IMG/VR virus record: IMGVR_UViG_3300027742_000005
Location: 1-45,091 of that record
DNA from: a virus
Length of the DNA stretch: 45,091 nt
Direction: 5' to 3' (one strand)
Each line of letters begins with the position of its first letter. Within the stretch, counting starts at the first letter, position 1. The position numbers and the translations under genes are program-made. The notes beneath the pieces were generated by a model. That model was given only the letters and a program-made list of their open reading frames with translations. It was not told where the DNA came from and searched no databases. Below are positions 1 through 29,174 of this stretch, in pieces.

Positions 1-99
1 CTATATCTTCAGTAGATAAATCTTTATGCACATTATTATAAACCGCAGTAGTTACATTCCAAGCAGTAGATAAAGTATATTGATAAACATCCCTCGTTG
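1..99. repeat. Terminal direct repeat, identical to 44993-45091 (circular-assembly overlap or terminal redundancy); unique genome length 44,992 bp
   Basis: Compared both ends base by base: ctatatcttcagtagataaatc...aacatccctcgttg occurs at both termini. A minus-strand frame passes through the junction without a stop. Confidence 0.95.
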
Positions 100-499
100 C
101 ATATCCCAACATATACATTTTAAGTCCATCGGGTTTAAATACAACCTTATATGGAGCTGTATCTTCTCCACTTACAAGTTTACTAGCACGAAATTTCAAA
201 TCGGCTAAATTCCAAGGAGTTCCACTTATTTTACCTACATCTGCATCATCTGATAATGATACATCAACTCTATATGCGGTTGCAATCCTTGAAGCTCCTA
301 AATTTACATAATATGTGGTTCCTAAATTTAACTTTTTTATTTTCTTGACTTTTATCTCTTTCTCAAAAGGCATAAAATTGATTATATGCTTAAATCCGCA
401 ATGTGGGCAGATGAGGATTGGTCGATTTGCTTTATCATATTCAAAGATATTATTTTCCAAGTTATATTCTTTTTTACATTTACAACATATTATCTTCAT
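1..499 (-). CDS. N-terminal part of the junction-spanning 1008-aa repeat protein (zinc ribbon plus first propeller-like blade); continues into 42465..45091
   Basis: ATG at 499-497, just after the stop of the upstream gene (512). My translation is MKIICCKCKKEYNLENNIFEYDKANRPILICPHCGFKH...VVFKPDGLKMYMLGYATRDVYQYTLSTAWNVTTAVYNNVHKDLSTEDIE. It leaves position 1 in the frame that is open at 45091. Confidence 0.75.
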   Translation of the reverse strand, partial: MKIICCKCKKEYNLENNIFEYDKANRPILICPHCGFKHIINFMPFEKEIKVKKIKKLNLGTTYYVNLGASRIATAYRVDVSLSDDADVGKISGTPWNLADLKFRASKLVSGEDTAPYKVVFKPDGLKMYMLGYATRDVYQYTLSTAWNVTTAVYNNVHKDLSTEDI

Positions 500-511
500 T
501 CTGCTCCTCTG

Positions 512-850
512 TTATTCCTTCTGGTATTCGTATTTTACTTTGCAATATTTCGCTGTGCTATTTGATACCGCACATCCGAATGGTCTATTGACTCCTAACC
601 CGCAAATCCATTTATTTCCATAACCGGGAGGATTTACCAAATAAACGCATTGACCATTTATAATAGGGAAGGGATGCTCTTTGGTTAAATGCTTACAACA
701 TTCTCCACACATTGAACATCCCTTTGTTTTGACTTTCCATTTATCTCCTCTGGTCTTCTCTGCTATTAAATCTATCCCCGCGAATACTCGTATATTTCTT
801 TCTTTTAAATCCTCTACTATATTATCTGGGATTTCCAATTCTATTTTCAT
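512..850 (-). CDS. Cys-cluster protein with CxxCxxCC motif (YkgJ/UPF0153-like zinc/iron-chelating domain)
   Basis: ATG 850 with SD GAGAGGA. 112 aa with 8 Cys, including C-S-M-C-G-E-C-C. Family name recalled from memory. Confidence 0.5.
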   Translation of the reverse strand: MKIELEIPDNIVEDLKERNIRVFAGIDLIAEKTRGDKWKVKTKGCSMCGECCKHLTKEHPFPIINGQCVYLVNPPGYGNKWICGLGVNRPFGCAVSNSTAKYCKVKYEYQKE

Positions 851-882
851 ACCAGTATCCTCTCTCTTGTTTCTTTTATTTT

Positions 883-1677
883 TTATGCTCCATCTATCTC
901 GATATCCAAATCCCCTGCTGGGAAATTTAACTGGTCTCCTATTCCTATTACTACTGAAGAATCCAATGCTCCATGGAATATCAGATTCGCTACCGCCTGC
1001 AAAGTTAAATTATCTGATATAAAGAAATGGGTAATCGTTCCCTGTGGTGCGGTGGTACAGGCATCGAATAATATTGCTCCTGTATTATCGGCGAGTTTCG
1101 CTGCTGCTGCATCCCAGGCATTGATATTCTTTCTGGCGTATCCGTTTCCGCTTGGTTCTCCTGCTGCCAGGCCTGATGCATCATCTTGCGGTGTGGCTTT
1201 AGCATATCCTACATATAAATTGGTTGGTACAGAAAGTTCTCCATTTTTGAATATGTGGTCCAAGAATGAATTTGCCCAGCTATTCCCTATTCCTCCTGCT
1301 GCCAGGGATACGTCTATATCTCCTATTGCGATATATAAATTATCTCCTGAATTTACGGTTATTTGGGTTATGTCGTCTTTCCCTAATAGGTTTCCTCCTG
1401 TTATGGCATCATATATTGCTACATAATTTACATTTCCCCAATCTGCTCCCGCCTCTGGAAACTCCAATTTGGCCTCATTCGATAATGCTCTGGCTGCTGC
1501 ATTAGTCCATCCGTTCGCTTGTACCCTGGCATAGGTTGACCCTGGGCATTCTGTACCTGCTCCTTCGGGATCTCCGTCAAATAATGCAATATAGATATTA
1601 GTTGGTTGTGCCAGTGGTGTGGTCTTTAGAATATGGTCTAATATTTTGTTACATACATCTATGCTTAAAACTCCCAT
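883..1677 (-). CDS. Tandem-duplicated Ala/Gly-rich virion accessory or fibre-like protein
   Basis: ATG 1677, SD AAGGAG. Two homologous halves: ILDHILK..PTNIYIALFDG..YARV..W..LEFPEA..WGNVNYVAIYDAITGGNLL versus FLDHIFK..PTNLYVGYAK..GYARKNINAW..ILFDAC..GTITHFFISD. The motif set recalls a widespread ~130-aa phage/prophage family. Local GC is 48-53% in two sampled 60-nt windows, against ~28% nearby. Confidence 0.4.
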   Translation of the reverse strand: MGVLSIDVCNKILDHILKTTPLAQPTNIYIALFDGDPEGAGTECPGSTYARVQANGWTNAAARALSNEAKLEFPEAGADWGNVNYVAIYDAITGGNLLGKDDITQITVNSGDNLYIAIGDIDVSLAAGGIGNSWANSFLDHIFKNGELSVPTNLYVGYAKATPQDDASGLAAGEPSGNGYARKNINAWDAAAAKLADNTGAILFDACTTAPQGTITHFFISDNLTLQAVANLIFHGALDSSVVIGIGDQLNFPAGDLDIEIDGA

Positions 1678-1702
1678 TTAAAATCAACTCCTTTCATTTT
1701 TT

Positions 1703-2521
1703 TTAAAAGCTGAATTCGATTCCCGCTTTTAAGTAATATTTATCTAAATTAAATTCAAAATCCTCTATCTCAAATAGATTCATTCCTGCTCCTATTATGA
1801 TATTATCGCCTATAGTATAGCATAAATCCAATCCCCCTTTTAAATCTTTAAAATCATATCCGGTAATATTCAGATTGAATTTTCTCCAATCCCATAATTG
1901 ATAACTCAGTCCGGGATAAAAAGATTCTGTATCTAAATCATATATCGCATTGAGACTAAGATTATATTTTTTATCTTCTTTCTTTTCTATTGTAGCTCCT
2001 GCCTTCAATTCTTCTATTGCTTCCTCTGCATCTCTGTGCCTGGTAATCTTAATTCCACTATCAAGGGATATCAGATTCCCTTCTGCATCTTCATAAATGA
2101 TAATCTTTTCTTCTCCTGTATTTACTAAGATTTTATCTTTACTTTCTCTATATTCTTTTATGCGTTCTTCAAATTCAATCCTCATCTTTTCAATTTTCTC
2201 TTTATTAACTTTCTCATTTTTTCTCAATTCAATTAATTCATCTTTCAATTCATTATAAGTTTCTGCATCCTCTTTGATTATAGTAGTTTCTTTCAGAGTA
2301 TCGGTTACTATTTTTTTCTCTATTACTGCTATTCCAGTATGAAGTTTAACAATTGCTTCTTGATTCTCATTTAATAATTCTATTAATCTTAATTCATTAT
2401 TTTTTACTTTCTCATTATTCTTAATTCTCCAATCCTGAAATGCCTGATATCCTTTATATCCCAAGAAAGCAAGAGTTATTAAAATGATTAAAATCAAGAC
2501 TATATTTATGATTTTTTTCAT
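1703..2521 (-). CDS. Membrane-anchored coiled-coil protein with a C-terminal OMP-like beta domain (candidate envelope-spanning lysis accessory)
   Basis: Track start is GTG 2530, but ATG 2521 has AAGGAG 8 nt upstream. N-terminal anchor KKIINIVLILIILITLAFLG, then ~150 aa of K/E-rich heptad-like sequence. The C-terminal ~90 aa has alternating hydrophobic strands ending YYLKAGIEFSF (terminal Phe). Confidence 0.55.
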   Translation of the reverse strand: MKKIINIVLILIILITLAFLGYKGYQAFQDWRIKNNEKVKNNELRLIELLNENQEAIVKLHTGIAVIEKKIVTDTLKETTIIKEDAETYNELKDELIELRKNEKVNKEKIEKMRIEFEERIKEYRESKDKILVNTGEEKIIIYEDAEGNLISLDSGIKITRHRDAEEAIEELKAGATIEKKEDKKYNLSLNAIYDLDTESFYPGLSYQLWDWRKFNLNITGYDFKDLKGGLDLCYTIGDNIIIGAGMNLFEIEDFEFNLDKYYLKAGIEFSF

Positions 2522-2535
2522 GTTAATCACTCCTT

Positions 2536-2706
2536 TTAAAATATGCTTATTATTTTATTCCATATCCATTTAATTCCTTTCCAGATTCCTTTTGCCAGTA
2601 ATAAAATCCAAGCTCCCCAACTTTTCAAGAAATCCTTAAAATTAAATATTACATAGATTATGGCCATTGCTCCTATAATCTGGAATATCAATTCTAAAAT
2701 ATCCAT
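2536..2706 (-). CDS. Small (56 aa) membrane protein with two hydrophobic segments (not in ORF track)
   Basis: ATG 2706 is preceded by AAGGGGG. Translation: MDILELIFQIIGAMAIIYVIFNFKDFLKSWGAWILLLAKGIWKGIKWIWNKIISIF. The stop directly abuts the SD of the next gene. Confidence 0.55.
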   Translation of the reverse strand: MDILELIFQIIGAMAIIYVIFNFKDFLKSWGAWILLLAKGIWKGIKWIWNKIISIF

Positions 2707-2719
2707 CTTCTATCCCCCT

Positions 2720-3163
2720 TTATCTAACTATTTTTATCCAAGTAGCATCTGTAAGTCCCATGTAATGCGCTGAAATGAATAATAATATTTCTTTTTTATA
2801 AGGGTCGGCAATCTCTGGTGTTATAAAATGTATGGAAGTTCCGGTAAATATTCCCGTCTTTAAATTCTTATTACCTCTGAATTCGCCATTACCTTTAGTA
2901 TACTTCCAGATAACTGCATCACTATTTATAAGTACTTCTTTTAATTCTTCTCTATCACTATATCCCTTTACTATAAATTTTAATTTCTCTCCGGCTTTAC
3001 ATTCATAAGGCATATTTTTGGAGTAATCAGGAAATATATGAAAGGTATTTATTTTTTCTTCTGATAGTATAACCGGTTCAGTATTTTTTTCATTTAGATA
3101 ACTAATATATTTTATCAGAACTCCTATTAATAATAACATCAAAATTATATATACATATACCAT
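2720..3163 (-). CDS. N-terminally anchored protein of unknown function in the lysis cassette
   Basis: Track start GTG 3172 overlaps the endolysin stop; ATG 3163 has SD GAGGTG. TM segment VYVYIILMLLLIGVLI followed by a ~120-aa beta-rich domain. Confidence 0.55.
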   Translation of the reverse strand: MVYVYIILMLLLIGVLIKYISYLNEKNTEPVILSEEKINTFHIFPDYSKNMPYECKAGEKLKFIVKGYSDREELKEVLINSDAVIWKYTKGNGEFRGNKNLKTGIFTGTSIHFITPEIADPYKKEILLFISAHYMGLTDATWIKIVR

Positions 3164-3168
3164 CTTTA

Positions 3169-3618
3169 TCACCTCGCTTTCTTTAAGAATTTTTCAAGAT
3201 TATATTCTCTACCTGAATAGATTGGTTTATCTCCATAATTCTTTAAGTACCAGAATTTAGAAGGATGAGGATTTACTACATCTACGTGTACATGATTAGG
3301 ATATATTCCTATTCTCAAAAATCCTACCCGGATACATAATTTTGCTAATTCCAGCATAGTCATTCCGATTACACTGATATCGGCAGCTTTACCGAATATG
3401 TGTGGAGAATTAGCATAACCGCCCACACTGGCGTTATAAGCAGGACATCTTCTTCCACTGTTTATCCTTGCAGTTTTTCCCATCTCTGTTAATTTCTGAA
3501 ATAGTTTATATAGTAATTCCAGAAGTAAAGCATTTATTTCATAAGGTTTGCCCTTGCATTCTGGACAAGGACATCCCATTTTTCCTTTAATTTCTCCTTT
3601 AGTCATTATCTGCTTCAT
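3169..3618 (-). CDS. Endolysin, peptidase M15 family (zinc D-Ala-D-Ala/L-Ala-D-Glu peptidase fold)
   Basis: SGRRCPAYNASVGGYANSPHIFGKAADISV (H-x6-D) and NHVHVDV (HxH) are the M15 zinc-ligand motifs. The gene follows the holin. The start is ambiguous (ATG 3618, 3606 or 3579). Confidence 0.85.
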   Translation of the reverse strand: MKQIMTKGEIKGKMGCPCPECKGKPYEINALLLELLYKLFQKLTEMGKTARINSGRRCPAYNASVGGYANSPHIFGKAADISVIGMTMLELAKLCIRVGFLRIGIYPNHVHVDVVNPHPSKFWYLKNYGDKPIYSGREYNLEKFLKKAR

Positions 3619-3847
3619 CTCCTTTACCTATGAAATAGAACTTTATAATATATCCGATTATTATTCCCCAGGTACTCATTACCATTGCAAAAGGAGTAGT
3701 AAATTCAAATTTTCCTAATAGAGTCATTTTATAAGCATTAATGATAATTATAGGGAATGGTACTGCCATTATCAGTACCAGAAATCTCCTTATTAGTCTG
3801 AATTTAATTATTTGTTTATTTATTTTGTTTAATCGTTTTATTGCCAT
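3599..3847 (-). CDS. Holin candidate (two TM helices)
   Basis: 82 aa with helices FLVLIMAVPFPIIIINAY and FAMVMSTWGIIIGYIIKFYFI and an acidic tail GDEADND. Lies immediately upstream of, and overlapping, the endolysin. Confidence 0.6.
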   Translation of the reverse strand: MAIKRLNKINKQIIKFRLIRRFLVLIMAVPFPIIIINAYKMTLLGKFEFTTPFAMVMSTWGIIIGYIIKFYFIGKGDEADND

Positions 3848-4181
3848 TATATACTTTTCTCCACATCCAGATGAATATCCCAGTAATGAAAGCTATAAAG
3901 AGGGCTAAAAGTGTATTCCATCTTGCTACCAATTCCTCGAGTTTTTCATAAAATCCAGCAATATTTATTTCATTTTTAGTTACTCTCTTTTCCATAAGAT
4001 TAACATTCGCGGTAACATTTTTGGAATTATCTTCAATGCGTCTAACTGTTTCTCTAATAGATTCTACCTTGCCATATAATTGAATCAATAATTCTCTATC
4101 AGTCAAATCAGATGGTTGAGAGAAAACTGATATCGGAAGCATAAATACAATTAATAATATTATTATAATTATCTTTTTCAT
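3816..4181 (-). CDS. Signal peptide / coiled coil / C-terminal TM protein (XhlA-like topology)
   Basis: KKIIIIILLIVFMLPISVFS/QP signal-like N-terminus, a coiled-coil middle, and the TM LLALFIAFITGIFIWMW plus a basic tail. Its position before holin and endolysin mirrors the xhlA-xhlB-xlyA order. Confidence 0.4.
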   Translation of the reverse strand: MKKIIIIILLIVFMLPISVFSQPSDLTDRELLIQLYGKVESIRETVRRIEDNSKNVTANVNLMEKRVTKNEINIAGFYEKLEELVARWNTLLALFIAFITGIFIWMWRKVYNGNKTIKQNK

Positions 4182-4199
4182 TATTATTTCAACTCCCTT

Positions 4200-4565
4200 C
4201 TACGAAATTATAACTTCATTAGTTATCCCTTTCCAATAAGCAGACCCTTCAGTTGCATCTACACAAATATATGCTTCTTCATCATATATCCATATACTCC
4301 CCTTTGCATAACCATCTCCAGAATCATCATCTACAGTAGGTAGAGCTTCAGCACTAAAATTATTCTTTACTACATTGGTAGCTATTTGGCCTACCGTACC
4401 ATCTTTAGGGTATAAACCATCTCCTAATTTTGTTTGTCCTATGATAGTTGCTAAATCTTCTATTATCTGTCTAATTTCATTTATGAGATTAAATTCATCC
4501 ATGAAATCAGCTGTATTCATTCTACCACTACCGGCACTCTCTTGAGTGAATTTATGATTAGCCAT
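4200..4565 (-). CDS. Small fibre-tip-like protein
   Basis: SD GGAGG. The C-terminal DDDSGDGYAKGSIWIYDEEAYICVDATEGSAYW resembles a GY..GS.W...Y.C.D...G.A.W motif I recall from short phage fibre proteins. Follows the large fibre gene. Confidence 0.35.
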   Translation of the reverse strand: MANHKFTQESAGSGRMNTADFMDEFNLINEIRQIIEDLATIIGQTKLGDGLYPKDGTVGQIATNVVKNNFSAEALPTVDDDSGDGYAKGSIWIYDEEAYICVDATEGSAYWKGITNEVIIS

Positions 4566-4568
4566 AAA

Positions 4569-7500
4569 TTAAACCTCCAATTCCAAAGTTAATATCGCTT
4601 CTTCTGTTTTAGCATTAATATTTATTTTCCTGATTTTAGTTAATATACTCAATTTTCCATCAATAATTCCTTCACCATCTGCTTTTGCTCCGATAACTCC
4701 ATTACCATCAATCTTATAATTTATCTGTCCATAAGCAAGTAATAGAGTATCTTCCCTTTCAAATGGCAGGGGTATATCATAATCAATATCAATCTTTAAT
4801 TTTAATTCCTGAAATCTATTTAAATAATCATCTCTTACAGATATACAAAAAGCTAAAGTCTGGATTAAATTATTCTTTATAGTTAATGTTCTTCTCCTGC
4901 CATATTTATCTATAATACTCTGGTCTGCTATAATACTGCATTTAATCTCCTTAATTATAATTGCATAATCTATCCCTGCAAAATCGGGTAGAGGAATACT
5001 GATATCTGGGAAATCGGGGAAATCCGGTAATTCAATAGGTGGAAATTCATCATCCCAATCATCTCCAGGTTCTTCTTCTATTTCATCCTGTTCCCCTTCA
5101 GGGTCCTCTATAATCATAAATGGAGCTTCATAATATTTTTCACCAGGAATTAAATCAACTATAAAAAAAGTTACTGATTCCCCACCGTACCATTCGCCAT
5201 CTTCATATACTATTCCTTCATTACAGCTCGTAGTTCTACCATATTTAATTCCTATTCTTGTTACTTTATATCCTTCTGGAAGACTATCTACTTTGATTTC
5301 GACTGTCTTTATGGCAGTAGTTGGGGATTCTATCGGTTCATTATCTTCACCACTAGGATTTTCATATTCAGTATCTGGTTCAATTATTATTTGATTAGTA
5401 ATTATCTCTACTTCTTCCCCGAATCCTCTACCTAATTCATTCTTACCAAATGCTTTTATTTTATAAATATCATTCGGTAATAATGCATCTAATATGCCAG
5501 TTCCTATACCAAGTTCATATTCTTCAAGAGAATATCCGGATAAATCTTCGGTACTTACTACTTTCAATAATTCTCCAACCGTTAGAAATCCAATAAGTAC
5601 CCCATTAGAAGCATATACAGGATTGGATTCTAAACTTGTAATAGTAAATCCATGAAAAGTATATTTACTTAAATCAAAATTATCTCCTGAAAATTCTTTT
5701 ATGACATGGAATCCTCTTTCGGTTACAATATTTGCTCCTATATCAGTTAATTCTCCATGACCTTTAGTCGAGAATGCAAGAGTATCTGTACATTCATTAG
5801 TAATAAGAGTCGGTATATTCTTCATCCATGTTCCGGCTACATATTTATTATCCCCATCATCCTTGCAGTATGCCCTAAACCACCAGATAATATCTTCTTC
5901 GGCAAGGTATAAATCATTATAAGTATCTTGAGAAGATAGATAGTATTCCTCTACTTCAAATCCTTCTCCAGTTTCCTTTACTTCTGTTCCTGTATCTTCT
6001 TCTCCTGGTTCCTCATCTTGTATCTTATATTCAAATCCCCTTTCTATAATAGTAGTATCTTTTTTGGTTATCTCTCCATAGAGATTTAAATGGCTGGCAA
6101 GCTTTGTTGCTTTCACATTTTCGATTAATGTACCCTCTTGTCTTACACCGGTCAGAGAATAGAAATCTAATTCATTCTGAATCTTAGTAGCCCAAGTAAA
6201 AACTTTTCCAAAAGTATATTGAGCAATCGAATAACCGCCTGTCTCGCTATCTATCCCAGTTATTAAAAAACTATCTTTTATCGAGCTTAAACTCTTTACA
6301 TAAGAAGTTCGAGATGGAATCCATTCAATTGGAGCTTCACTCAAATCAGTTTGTATAGTCCAACCCTGCTCTCCATATTCATTGCTATATATCAAATTCC
6401 CGGCGAATGCCAGGAAGTTATAATCTCCTACATAAAATCCTGATAGACTTGTTTCAGCTATTTTTTCCCATACATAGGGATCTTGTACCCAATGCCATTT
6501 CTCTATATTATTTGAGATTACATTTATCACATAATAATAACCATCATTATCTATGGCTAATCCTGTATATGCATGCGGGTCAATAGTGATACTTAATATC
6601 TCACTAGAACCTATCACGGTCAAATCAGCAGTGCTCCTCTTTTGCAAATATTGCATGTCATCATCTCTACCTCTTATACACAGATTCCCTTCGGGGTCGA
6701 TAGCAATAGAATAAGCTTCTCCTAATAAACTAATTGTGATAACTATAGCCCCATTTTTATTCCTTTTTATGAGTGTAGTTTCATCTTTTATGGAATAAGT
6801 ATTTCCATCTTCATCTACACAAATACAATTAGCATTCGAATAATCACCGACTAAATCCCAAGAATTATATATATTGCCATCTTTATCATAAGCAATCATA
6901 TACCATTCATATTCCCAGATATCCTGCACCAGCATAAATATCTTTGGGTCGAGTTGTTTAGTAGAGAATTTTACATATTCTTCGGAATAATATATTCCCG
7001 TTGGAGTAATTGCATATGCACGGACATAGAAATCCGTATTACCAGCTAATCCAGATGCAATAAGTTCATATTTTCCTTCATTACCAGCATTTATACTTCT
7101 ATCCCACATATCTGATTCGGAAGTTCCATATTTGAATCCTTTCGTAGTTACATTCCCATCAGCATCATCATTTATATAACCTATAAATTTGACGGTATTT
7201 TCCGCCATTTTTGTAACATCGATTGCGATAATTATTTTTAAAGCAGCTTTCGCATCAGTTGTAAAATCCTCCATCATTCCGTATTTTTCAATATATTCCC
7301 AATAACCTTCTTCTTCTCCTTCTGGCGGTACCCATCTCTTGAATTTACCATAGGCCTGATAATAATATTTGGTATATGCCACTAATCCGCCTTTAGTATA
7401 AGAAAATATTCCAGGTCCGGGAGTCCCAGAAGCATCATTATAAGTCGTGAGTGGCAATTCATCATCACAATAGAATCCCCATTTTATGCACTCCCATCCA

Positions 7501-22428: not shown

Positions 22429-23355
22429 TTATACTCCTATCTTTACTAAATCTTCTTCATAAAAGAAATCTCTTCCGGTCGGTGCTTTAAATCCTTCTGG
22501 CATTAAGAAAGGTACTACCCTGCATCTACATTGAATCCATTCAGCTATATCTCCACTTGTATCGAGAGGATGCATTAATCCATTACTGAATGGTTCTCCT
22601 ACCTTTACTATCTGTCCATGTAGATATGTATGGTCTGCTAAATCTGCAGGGTCATTCCCTCTAACTCTATCATCTTGTGCAGTCCACCATTGATGATAAT
22701 CTACTCCCAATTCCTGCTCGGTCATAAATGTAGCTACATTCTGCGCTCCATTTATTTCAGTCCTCGCTACTCTACTTAATTCATAATCAAGCATTGAATC
22801 AAATGTACTATCAAGATTACTCGCGGCCTCAGCTATTCCTAAACCTTCTTCATAACTATCGGCAAGATTAGCCATTACATTATCCGTTATTCTGGCAAGC
22901 GTGGCATCAGAAGCTACAAAGGTTTTATCCTTAATCAATTTTAATATTTCTGGAGAGAATTCGCTAAATTCTACATCTGCTATTTTTATTATCACTCGGG
23001 GTCCCGAGCTTGTCCTTGATTTTTTAGTTTGCTTTTTGATTTCACGTATAGTTTCAGTCCTATGATAGCTTAAAGTCTCCTGTTTATTATCGAATAATGT
23101 ATTACCAAAATCCTCTTTTATGTCACTCAACCCTGATAATAGAGCTTTCCTCTCCATATCACTCGAAGGAACAGTATCTCTCTTCTTCAATTCATTCATT
23201 ATCTTTTTGAACTGCTTACTAAAGAGTTTTCTTAATTCCCTATTTAGTCTGCTCTCTTCCTCAATTATCTTCTTTGGTATCCCTTTGTATATTCCTAAGG
23301 AATTTCGCGTATGCTCTATCTCTATCAGCATCTTTAGGATAGCGTTTTCTAACAT
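22429..23355 (-). CDS. Head morphogenesis protein, SPP1 gp7 / Mu F family
   Basis: The C-terminal SRVARTEINGAQNVATF..YHQWWTAQDDRVRGNDPADLADHTYLHGQIV..IQCRCRVVPF is the family signature. ATG 23355 overlaps the portal gene by 95 nt, so the start is uncertain. Confidence 0.8.
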   Translation of the reverse strand: MLENAILKMLIEIEHTRNSLGIYKGIPKKIIEEESRLNRELRKLFSKQFKKIMNELKKRDTVPSSDMERKALLSGLSDIKEDFGNTLFDNKQETLSYHRTETIREIKKQTKKSRTSSGPRVIIKIADVEFSEFSPEILKLIKDKTFVASDATLARITDNVMANLADSYEEGLGIAEAASNLDSTFDSMLDYELSRVARTEINGAQNVATFMTEQELGVDYHQWWTAQDDRVRGNDPADLADHTYLHGQIVKVGEPFSNGLMHPLDTSGDIAEWIQCRCRVVPFLMPEGFKAPTGRDFFYEEDLVKIGV

Positions 23356-24805
23356 CTTCCATCAACACCTCGATTAATTTATTCTTCAGGCCTTCAAGTA
23401 TATTAACTAATTCTATCTCCGGTACAAAACTACCAGCATCTATTGCTTTACCACTAAGGTAATGCATATCCATAGCAGGATTATCTTCTACTGCTTTAAG
23501 CCCATATCTATTTCCTACATGAGCAATTCCTTGATTCGGGGTCATCATAGCATTTGTTATTAACTTGATACATCTATCAATCTCTTTATCCTCATCTTTA
23601 GTATCTATGCTTACCAATTTCCATATCCAATCTTTGATTTCAAGTGTAGGAAATACAAAGAAATTAATGAATTCTTCGTAGAGTTTCTGTTTAGGAAGTA
23701 TTACTGAATCATTATAAATTACAGTACTTTCCAATCCGAGATTCCCTGCTAATTGTCCGGTCTCATATATTCCCATTCTGTAAGGTGGAGTGGCATGTGC
23801 AGTAATGACTTCATTTCTATTATCAACTCTATATAATCTAAAACTTGCCTCTTTTATATCAGTAGAAATCGGTTTAATATCAATCTTGACTTCACCCAGT
23901 GAACCATCCCTTTTAGGAACTACCATAGTCATAACACTATGAGGATTCTGAGCCATAGCTTTAAATTTTTCTTTGATAGCAGTTTCTAATGGGGTCATCT
24001 TAGTTTTAGGGTCCTCTTTACCCGGTTCGAAATCTCCGGTAATGTAAACTATATATGCAGGTATACCATAATTCTTGAAGAAGGATATATTATAATCCCT
24101 TCTGGAGATATCCCCGGTTATAGCTCCGATCGCAGGAACGATATCAGGCACTCCATAAAAAGTACTTCGAGGATAGTAATTCATAAGCCAGTATATCTCA
24201 GTTGCCCTCTTACTTTTATCCAGAGATTTTTCTTTTAATTCTCTACCATCCTTTTTATCTACATCTTTCTCATATCCGAAATTCCTGAACCAGACTTTTT
24301 TATTATTCCATTTCTGGCAGAATTTATTACCTTGTTTGTGCATTCTTATAGTATATGCAGGTATATGAGTAATCAGACTTACCGGACCATTAAAATCATT
24401 ATTCTCTCTTACTACTTCCAGGCCTGAATATCCGTTAGCTTCATAATCTATACTCGACCTTCTTATGGTTTCTTCTATCGGCATATTCTGATTAGCAAAA
24501 AAATCATTTATCCTTTTCTTTTCTTCTTCACTCGGCTTGTCTACTTTGGATTCAAGTTCCCAGCCCTTCCCGGAAGTATCGTTCGATTTGGTCTTACAAG
24601 CCCTCATGTGATAGGTATTCATCTCCATCAACTTGGCCATGGTTACAGGTTCATATAAGGGTTCTACTAATCCGCTTTCTTTATATTCCTTAGCAAATAC
24701 TTCCTTCTCCAGTTGCTGACTCTTTTCCTCTCTTTGGTATTTTGCCAAGACATCCAAACTTACTACTTCACCTATATTAGTTACAATGCAAAATGGCTTA
24801 CTCAT
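23261..24805 (-). CDS. Portal protein
   Basis: 514 aa, SD AAGGAG, ATGA-coupled to the upstream gene. Lies between the terminase and the gp7-like gene. Core motif YYPRSTFYGVPDIVPAIGAITGD. Confidence 0.8.
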   Translation of the reverse strand: MSKPFCIVTNIGEVVSLDVLAKYQREEKSQQLEKEVFAKEYKESGLVEPLYEPVTMAKLMEMNTYHMRACKTKSNDTSGKGWELESKVDKPSEEEKKRINDFFANQNMPIEETIRRSSIDYEANGYSGLEVVRENNDFNGPVSLITHIPAYTIRMHKQGNKFCQKWNNKKVWFRNFGYEKDVDKKDGRELKEKSLDKSKRATEIYWLMNYYPRSTFYGVPDIVPAIGAITGDISRRDYNISFFKNYGIPAYIVYITGDFEPGKEDPKTKMTPLETAIKEKFKAMAQNPHSVMTMVVPKRDGSLGEVKIDIKPISTDIKEASFRLYRVDNRNEVITAHATPPYRMGIYETGQLAGNLGLESTVIYNDSVILPKQKLYEEFINFFVFPTLEIKDWIWKLVSIDTKDEDKEIDRCIKLITNAMMTPNQGIAHVGNRYGLKAVEDNPAMDMHYLSGKAIDAGSFVPEIELVNILEGLKNKLIEVLMEDVRKRYPKDADRDRAYAKFLRNIQRDTKEDN

Positions 24806-28760: not shown

Positions 28761-29144
28761 TTACTCCTCTATAACATATACTTTTACCAATCTTATTCCC
28801 CAGTCGATTGCTTCTTGTAATGTATTATAACATACATCTGCTTCCCATCCTTTGATTGAACTCCCTACATCATTGCAGATACCATATCCATATCCCTCTA
28901 TGAATACTCTCTGACCTAACCTTAGAGGACCGCCTTCGGGGTCGATTGCTATACAGCCATATCCCGCTATTGCTCCAGTCGCGGTAAGCCCATCATTAAA
29001 AGGATAAGTACATTCCGGTCCGGGGTAATAAGCAGTTACTCTCAAAATATAATATTTACATTCTTGAATTTCTGCCTCAGGCCAACCCACATATAATAAC
29101 AAAATTAATATTATAATCTCAATCAAAATAATCAATTTTTTCAT
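28761..29144 (-). CDS. Secreted or anchored 3D-domain protein (RlpA/MltA-like double-psi beta-barrel; peptidoglycan-acting)
   Basis: Track start is GTG 29165; ATG 29144 has SD AAGGAG. Signal/anchor KKLIILIEIIILILLLYVGW. Then RVTAYYPGPECT..GLTATGAIAGYGCIAIDPEGGPLRLGQRVFIEGYGYGICNDVGSSIKGWEADV. Confidence 0.65.
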   Translation of the reverse strand: MKKLIILIEIIILILLLYVGWPEAEIQECKYYILRVTAYYPGPECTYPFNDGLTATGAIAGYGCIAIDPEGGPLRLGQRVFIEGYGYGICNDVGSSIKGWEADVCYNTLQEAIDWGIRLVKVYVIEE

Positions 29145-29174
29145 CTTTAACTCCTTTCTCATCACAACGCAAGA

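Follow-up and report, generated by a model that had tools for sequence, protein, structure and literature searches.

The complete viral genome IMGVR_UViG_3300027742_000005 (45,091 bp, with direct terminal repeats), analysed over its full length and called the window below, carries on its minus strand, at positions 1703–2521, a gene whose product, P0001, combines an N-terminal hydrophobic helix and a long stalk rich in Lys and Glu with a C-terminal domain of six amphipathic β-strands ending in phenylalanine. The reading considered best here, with a probability of roughly 0.4, is that P0001 forms a tether between the inner and the outer membrane and acts in lysis like a spanin, while being a member of no spanin family. 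This reading builds on the anatomy of the protein, its conservation, and its linkage to the lysis cassette, all of which are observed directly.

The C-terminal domain carries, throughout the family, the classical sequence marks of the outer-membrane β-barrel proteins. The chain ends in ...YYLKAGIEFSF, so that F272, F270, I268, A266, and L264 occupy positions −1, −3, −5, −7, and −9, respectively, and the last eight residues (KAGIEFSF) match the pattern polar-x-Gly-x-x-aromatic-x-aromatic; in other words, P0001 possesses a C-terminal β-signal ending in an aromatic residue, as do the substrates of the β-barrel assembly machinery (BAM). An earlier note on this DNA, prepared from the sequence alone, had pointed to such a signal, and its conservation now speaks in favor of this proposal: the terminal Phe is present in each of the 78 full-length members down to approximately 30% identity, usually in the form [FYWI]-x-F, as well as in all six fragments belonging to the family.

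The six strands (residues 186–272) alternate strictly between two faces, the statistics of which, together with those of the aromatic belts and the loops, were obtained for 38 non-redundant members of the family. In each of them, the hydrophobic face features 0–1 charged residues per 32 positions along with 6–14 aromatics, whereas the polar face, rich in small residues (G/S/N/D/T), harbors 6–11 charged ones and includes the conserved S206, N218, G230, D232, G244, and G246. Aromatic residues are frequent (0.63–1.0) at the strand ends, i.e., at Y186, Y194, F201, W212, F215, F224, Y235, Y262, F270, and F272, while the strand middles are aliphatic, with aromatic frequencies of mostly 0–0.1 and certain intermediate positions (e.g., L190, 0.55, and Y207, 0.68). 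As a result, two aromatic belts spaced by about nine residues are formed on the hydrophobic face. The turns T1 and T2, which would be periplasmic, are constant in length in 38 of 38 members; the would-be outer loops L1, L2, and L3 are variable (8–11, 9–17, and 7–17 residues, respectively). The uncharged face, the belts, and the combination of short turns with variable loops thus comply with an outer-membrane barrel as a sequence pattern only. Conservation is slightly greater on the polar face (entropy 1.28) than on the hydrophobic one (1.49), as anticipated for a membrane barrel, the difference being not significant (p = 0.30). When the side-chain volumes of the hydrophobic face are added up, the totals differ little between family members (2950–3340 Å3).

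The linkage of P0001 to the lysis cassette is firmly established family-wide. Wherever a related locus extends far enough to cover the upstream sequence, the gene is directly preceded by tm56, a small membrane-protein gene encoding 49–61 aa across the loci, and the stop codon of tm56 is separated from the start of the P0001 gene by a gap of 4–6 nt or overlaps it by 4 nt. Departures from this spacing are confined to the loci with insertions, namely two loci with an HNH gene and the near-identical loci L009, L010, L011, and L015 with a small open reading frame (ORF). The pair always resides within a cassette together with a Peptidase_M15_3 endolysin, an XhlA-like protein, and a holin-like protein with two transmembrane (TM) segments. 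In the locus L003, the genes are arranged in the order XhlA-like, holin-like, tm56, P0001, zinc-ribbon ORF, endolysin, so the pair precedes the endolysin gene rather than following it; therefore, tm56 and the P0001 gene move as a unit inside the cassette. The downstream neighbor of P0001 is often the gene of the Gp80 fibre-bead protein, but it is different in L002, L009, and L003. Since the lysis cassette is constant and the downstream neighbor changes, P0001 is tied to lysis and not to the fibre module.

These findings agree with the statements of the earlier note that P0001 is encoded by the last gene of the lysis cluster (the next gene, 883–1677, codes for the Gp80 protein) and that it is linked to lysis, as all related loci, even the rearranged one, have it in a cassette with the M15 endolysin. 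Homologs located beside endolysins, for which the note had advised a search, were found among the metagenomic relatives but not among the isolated phages from INPHARED. As for tm56, its product could be a membrane-active peptide, a partner of P0001, or a small protein of the holin or antiholin kind. In two loci (L006, 2604–3380, and L012, 5372–5971), an HNH endonuclease-like ORF is placed exactly between tm56 and the P0001 gene; this insertion looks like a mobile homing element.

The search for ORFs with a lipobox (at least 25 aa, all start codons) revealed none on the coding strand in positions 1–4600, nor did the lysis cassettes from 11 related loci contain any, so the earlier observation that the cassette lacks a lipobox Cys was confirmed and extended. 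The five matches to the lipobox pattern fell outside the lysis cassettes and belonged to short ORFs and a protein of fibre size. Therefore, the cassettes offer no candidate for an o-spanin or u-spanin. The idea of a one-piece lysis protein, also put forward in the earlier note, is doubtful in that tm56 is an obligate upstream neighbor and may be a partner. L003 encodes a lipoprotein of 148 aa with the lipobox LSGC (4270–4716, minus strand), whose gene is oriented opposite to the lysis cassette and immediately precedes it. This lipoprotein is unlike a spanin in size and position and may represent a lysogeny-associated or exclusion gene.

The family of P0001 is narrow and composed of metagenomic sequences exclusively. 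A word-index search retrieved 72 relatives, and an exhaustive HMMER search of 1.8 billion representatives returned 14 clusters only, all of the same architecture or its fragments; overall, the family comprises 78 full-length members with identity down to approximately 30%. No meaningful match for either P0001 or tm56 was found in Pfam, PHROGs, NCBIfam, or PADLOC. Homologs of P0001 were not detected in the isolated phages (tblastn against 50,697 INPHARED records), and a pattern scan covering 185,579 species genomes revealed none either. A profile search with the β-domain revealed no stand-alone or differently fused copies but only fragments of the same family, and the search of the ESM Atlas by sequence features yielded only unnamed small viral or bacterial clusters.

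In the ORF listing, the gene spans 1703–2530 (minus strand) and begins from GTG at 2530. This codon falls within the AAGGAG ribosome-binding site (window 2522–2538), which overlaps the tm56 stop codon; hence, the ATG at 2521, located behind this site and giving a protein of 272 aa, is likely to be the true start. The N-terminal hydrophobic anchor expected from the earlier note is represented by a single region: the best 19-residue Kyte–Doolittle window covers residues 4–22 (mean 2.8), and every other window scores 1.6 or less. MKK stands before the helix, and a conserved aromatic stretch, GYxGYQxYQxW in the family alignment, comes after it. Since the hydrophobic run comprises 15–19 residues and lacks a polar c-region, residues 4–22 are predicted to be an uncleaved signal-anchor with an N-in/C-out orientation. 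Possibly, the segment is instead a cleaved signal peptide, which would leave P0001 anchored in the outer membrane only.

The same note described the following part of the chain as approximately 150 residues of K/E-rich, heptad-like sequence. The richness was confirmed (Lys and Glu make up 34% of residues 26–185), but the region is not one continuous coiled coil, and the stalk is only partly helical. The AlphaFold prediction for the full-length protein (35-sequence alignment, mean predicted local distance difference test score, pLDDT, of 64) places helices at residues 2–52, 89–102, 107–126, and 165–173 and strands at residues 57–82 and 130–164; in the best heptad register, hydrophobic residues occupy 8 of the 12 a/d positions in the region 86–127 and 5 of 9 in the region 22–52. 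Residues 127–164, with the consensus SxDKILxNTGxxKIxIYEDxxGNLVSLxSGxxITRHR, constitute the most conserved block of the family and are possibly a module for interaction or oligomerization. The connection between residues 163 and 186 varies in length across the family (16–22 residues). P0001 contains a single Cys, C234, which is located in a strand, and none in the first 200 residues.

For the C-terminal domain alone (43 sequences), AlphaFold yielded a six-stranded model with a pLDDT of 88.8 and a predicted TM-score (pTM) of 0.77. In this model, the six strands are closed into a barrel of their own, as suggested by the best solved match, BBn6, which is itself a six-stranded barrel. The next matches (OmpW, OprF, NspA, TamA, and OmpA) had Z of about 5, the background range for the search tool. 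In the Foldseek comparison with the PDB, designed transmembrane barrels, OprF, and OmpA ranked top at E > 0.01. The shape neighbors in the ESM Atlas belonged mostly to the OMP_b-brl, PagL, and Opacity clusters (TM-score 0.56–0.65), and those in BFVD were mostly phage entries named “outer membrane protein beta-barrel” (probability 0.9–1.0, E > 0.005). No Foldseek match at E ≤ 0.001 was found for the full-length model. The prediction of a homo-oligomer (residues 165–272 in three copies with the family alignment) gave a score of 0.00 in a run without controls and thus speaks neither for nor against the sharing of a barrel between chains.

The host is somewhat more probably than not a bacterium with two membranes (a diderm); the source samples are hydrothermal and marine sediments. 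The M15 peptidase, the 3D-domain protein, the use of Shine–Dalgarno sites, and the endolysin without a wall-binding module collectively point to a peptidoglycan-bearing bacterium, leaning toward a diderm; single-domain endolysins are the usual form in the phages of Gram-negative hosts. An archaeal host is unlikely in view of the M15 peptidoglycan peptidase, the 3D-domain protein, and Shine–Dalgarno sites at no less than 29 of 50 genes. At the same time, the closest isolated virus by the portal protein (23261–24805, minus strand) is Methanobacterium virus Drs3 (38% identity over 88% of the query), and a 57%-identical portal is encoded on a 2.3-kb contig from a metagenome-assembled genome (MAG) of Heimdallarchaeota. 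Such a Methanobacterium- and Heimdallarchaeota-like portal beside peptidoglycan hydrolases implies either that viruses of archaea and of bacteria have the module in common or that the contig was binned incorrectly. One member of the P0001 family is located on a 3.2-kb contig deposited in a MAG of Atribacteria. No tyrosine integrase was found in the related viral genomes; therefore, prophage flanks provide no information on the host.

Several lines of evidence weigh against the tether or the diderm host that it presumes. A closed outer-membrane barrel comprises at least eight strands, and so do the known monomers among the small outer-membrane barrels, whereas P0001 has six per chain. No match to a Pfam family of outer-membrane proteins was found, the sole match at E up to 10 being PorP_SprF (in 3 of 35 members at E 0.057). 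The enrichment in membrane barrels is consistent across the structure libraries, yet every single match stays below significance. The solved structure closest to the domain model, BBn6 (9xzt; Z 9.6, 84 residues, 2.8 Å), was designed as a six-stranded barrel (n = 6, S = 8) and is soluble in water; according to its designers, such a fold is rarely if ever found in nature (PMC12478100). Hence, the domain may be a soluble barrel enclosing its hydrophobic face, and the small outer-membrane barrel envisaged in the earlier note retains its sequence hallmarks but not the expected strand number. The host labels, Atribacteria and Heimdallarchaeota, are in conflict, and short binned contigs are unreliable evidence of the host. 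Lastly, the XhlA-like/holin/lysin layout is typical of phages of monoderm Firmicutes; the XhlA match in the window is weak.

A part of this evidence would be accommodated by P0001 being a membrane-anchored extracytoplasmic protein with a small soluble six-stranded barrel, in which the hydrophobic face is buried. Such a protein would be a lysis regulator or a factor binding the wall or a partner; it could, e.g., time the holin or position the endolysin, and its host could be a monoderm. This explanation, possible but on the unlikely side, is supported by the closed barrel modelled by AlphaFold and its resemblance to BBn6, by the near-constant volume of the hydrophobic face, as for a packed core, and by the Firmicutes-like gene layout together with portal relatives of approximately 40% identity in Bacillales prophages. 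Still, a soluble barrel would not be expected to end exactly in Phe in 78 members or to display two aromatic belts, and the restriction of length variation to the loops, with the turns on the opposite side fixed, the conserved Gly/Ser/Asn/Asp on the supposedly exposed face, and the lack of a wall-binding module in the endolysin also argue against it. The Phe, faces, belts, and loops would equally suit a protein inserted in the outer membrane without a role in its rupture, serving instead in superinfection exclusion, receptor masking, BAM jamming, tethering, or envelope anchoring. Phage-encoded outer-membrane barrels with a non-lytic role do exist, such as Lom of phage lambda, and the BFVD neighbors are phage proteins named as outer-membrane proteins. 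Nevertheless, the P0001 gene is confined to the late lysis cassette, its coupling to tm56 and the endolysin persists where the gene order has changed, and the lack of tyrosine integrases in the related genomes makes lysogenic conversion unlikely, rendering this explanation improbable.

Even less probable is that tm56 encodes the actual disruptor of the outer membrane, similar to disruptins, with P0001 as an accessory or an unrelated neighbor. The product of tm56 is conserved in every locus and has a Lys/Trp-rich amphipathic C-terminal half, and gp28 of phage phiKT is likewise a cationic helical peptide of 56 aa (bioRxiv 10.1101/515445). However, gp28 is hydrophilic and devoid of a membrane-targeting segment (bioRxiv 10.1101/515445), while the clear N-terminal TM helix of the tm56 product is more like that of a small holin or antiholin; moreover, the equal conservation of P0001 and its coupling to tm56 would be left unexplained. 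It is very improbable that P0001 is a component of the virion or of fibre assembly. The Gp80 fibre-bead gene does lie directly downstream in the window and in several relatives, but other genes take this place in L002, L009, and L003, no match to a structural PHROG was found, and both the strongly hydrophobic TM helix and the coupling of translation with tm56 are more in keeping with a membrane protein.

Returning to the tether between the two membranes, we infer the localization, topology, and oligomeric state of P0001, its lytic activity, and the type of its host from the observations above, and a possible sequence of events can be outlined as follows. P0001 would be a late-expressed lysis accessory bridging the envelope of a host with two membranes. 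Upon export by Sec, its N-terminal helix would be retained in the cytoplasmic membrane as an uncleaved signal-anchor, and the stalk of approximately 160 residues (two helical segments, the conserved β-module, and a flexible linker) would cross the periplasm through the peptidoglycan mesh. The six-stranded domain may then be inserted into the outer membrane by BAM via the C-terminal Phe signal, where the barrel would probably be oligomeric, i.e., shared between chains, or otherwise completed. After the removal of the wall by the holin and the M15 endolysin, the tethers would cluster or collapse, so that the outer membrane is pulled or torn in a spanin-like manner; tm56 probably works together with P0001.

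The significance of such a mechanism would stem from its presumable hosts. The catalogued spanins reach the outer membrane via a lipoprotein: spanins were found in 586 of 677 genomes of phages with Gram-negative hosts and were missing from the other 91 (PMC6139136). According to published reports, the diderm Terrabacteria, including Negativicutes, Thermotogota, and Atribacterota, possess neither the Lol pathway nor outer-membrane lipoproteins (PMC11784454; bioRxiv 10.1101/2021.05.31.446380), Lol being practically absent from Terrabacteria and Atribacteria being listed among the OmpM-bearing diderm representatives of this group (bioRxiv 10.1101/2021.05.31.446380). Therefore, a lipoprotein spanin could not reach the outer membrane in a Lol-less host. 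In the literature searched, we found no description of a spanin anchored by a β-barrel and no mention of spanins together with Negativicutes, Veillonella, or Thermotoga. It is tempting, albeit speculative and rather doubtful, to regard P0001 as the first spanin-like disruptor with a BAM-inserted β-strand outer anchor, evolved in phages of Lol-less diderms (e.g., Atribacterota) and working with tm56. If true, this would answer the question of how phages lyse such cells, and a six-strand unit, monomeric or shared, would join the known repertoire of outer-membrane barrels. P0001 is a concrete, cloneable candidate for the missing outer-membrane step in Lol-less diderms; if the reading is wrong, it is still a conserved, unannotated component of the lysis cassette, and its six-stranded meander barrel is predicted with confidence.

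The features of P0001 and the neighboring genes are collected in Table 1. All genes of the genome are located on the minus strand, and the phage is of the siphovirus type, as it possesses genes for the tape measure, tail tube, portal, and terminase. No tRNA genes were found in the genome, and a search of the coding strand over positions 1–4800 revealed no terminator-like site. The 3D-domain protein (134 aa; window 28761–29165, minus strand) is encoded in the early/middle region, distant from the lysis cassette, and its domain represents an MltA/RlpA-like fold that binds or cleaves peptidoglycan. The XhlA-like protein possesses an extra N-terminal signal-peptide-like segment (MKKIIIIILLIVFMLPISVFSQ) followed by a coil and a C-terminal TM helix; this topology resembles that of a unimolecular spanin minus the lipid anchor.

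Table 1. Location of P0001, its parts, and the adjacent genes in the window.
Feature	Position	Strand	Remarks
P0001 gene	1703–2521	−	272 aa plus stop; founder of the 78-member metagenomic family
N-terminal TM helix, residues 4–22	2456–2512	−	Kyte–Doolittle window, alignment, AlphaFold helix
K/E-rich stalk, residues 23–126	2144–2455	−	Helices 23–52 and 89–126 with low-confidence strands 57–82 between them
Most conserved block, residues 127–164	2030–2143	−	β-rich, polar; alignment and AlphaFold
Short helix and K/E-rich linker, residues 165–185	1967–2029	−	AlphaFold; length of the 163–186 connection variable
Six amphipathic β-strands, residues 186–272	1706–1966	−	Strand-face analysis, AlphaFold
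C-terminal strand YLKAGIEFSF, residues 263–272	1706–1735	−	Terminal Phe in 78/78
tm56, 56 aa, one TM helix, Lys/Trp-rich amphipathic tail	2536–2706	−	Candidate partner or independent lysis factor
150-aa protein, N-terminal TM helix and β-rich domain	2720–3172	−	Present in most related cassettes
Endolysin, 149 aa, single Peptidase_M15_3 domain, no wall-binding module	3169–3618	−	Library match
82-aa protein with two TM segments	3599–3847	−	Putatively holin-like, by position and shape
XhlA-like protein, 121 aa	3816–4181	−	Weak match to PHROG 1193
Gp80 fibre-bead protein	883–1677	−	Downstream neighbor, outside the lysis cassette; family match

Among the known lysis proteins, the i-spanins of the lambda Rz type (as defined in PMC6139136) are similar to P0001 in the N-terminal TM helix, presumably oriented N-in/C-out, the charged, partly coiled-coil stalk, and the location of the gene in the lysis cassette beside the endolysin. 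The difference is that no cognate o-spanin gene accompanies P0001, i.e., it lacks an embedded, overlapping, or adjacent lipoprotein partner and carries a putative outer-membrane domain of its own; the searches of the family libraries revealed no sequence similarity of P0001 to an annotated spanin or another family. With the u-spanins of the T1 gp11 type, P0001 shares the proposed reach of one polypeptide to both membranes and the β-rich periplasmic parts. The u-spanins are held in the outer membrane by an N-terminal lipid anchor and in the inner membrane by a C-terminal TM helix (PMC6139136). In P0001, the polarity and the anchor chemistry are reversed: there is neither an N-terminal lipobox Cys nor a C-terminal TM helix but an N-terminal TM helix and a putative C-terminal β-strand anchor. 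A spanin-independent breach of the outer membrane in a lipoprotein-free cassette is also known from the disruptin phiKT gp28, to which the tm56 product is similar as a small, cationic, amphipathic polypeptide (bioRxiv 10.1101/515445). P0001 itself, with its 272 aa and TM helix, is not a small cationic peptide, and the TM helix of the tm56 product is absent from gp28.

With regard to the outer anchor, the small barrels of the OmpA, OmpX, OmpW, PagL, and Opacity types resemble the domain of P0001 in the meander strands, aromatic belts, short turns and variable loops, and the C-terminal Phe, and they come up as its neighbors in three libraries. Apart from the strand number and the missing profile match considered above, they differ by a cleaved signal peptide in place of the N-terminal inner-membrane anchor of P0001. 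The trimeric autotransporters (type Vc) likewise feature a coiled-coil-containing chain ending in a few strands that could build a shared barrel, and the earlier note had named an anchor of this kind as an option. They contribute four strands per chain, so the trimer forms a 12-strand barrel, and export an N-terminal passenger, whereas P0001 possesses six strands and an N-terminus presumably lodged in the inner membrane. A YadA_anchor-type anchor was ruled out for P0001 by its six strands per chain and the lack of a YadA_anchor match in Pfam.

Another relevant comparison is provided by the elongated MlaD proteins of Veillonella parvula and other diderm Terrabacteria. P0001 does not belong to the MCE/MlaD proteins, a membership ruled out by the lack of an MCE or MlaD match in Pfam: it has no MCE domain, six strands instead of ten, and no detected sequence relation to them, and it is found in a phage lysis context as opposed to a lipid-transport operon. 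The similarity lies in the layout, since MlaD of V. parvula possesses a helix in the inner membrane, a helical region of approximately 150 residues, and a barrel in the outer membrane at its C-terminus (PMC10665443). Thus, the elongated MlaD represents a precedent, from Lol-less organisms, for the arrangement proposed here for P0001, in which a single chain would span the envelope from an inner-membrane helix to an outer-membrane β-domain (PMC10665443).

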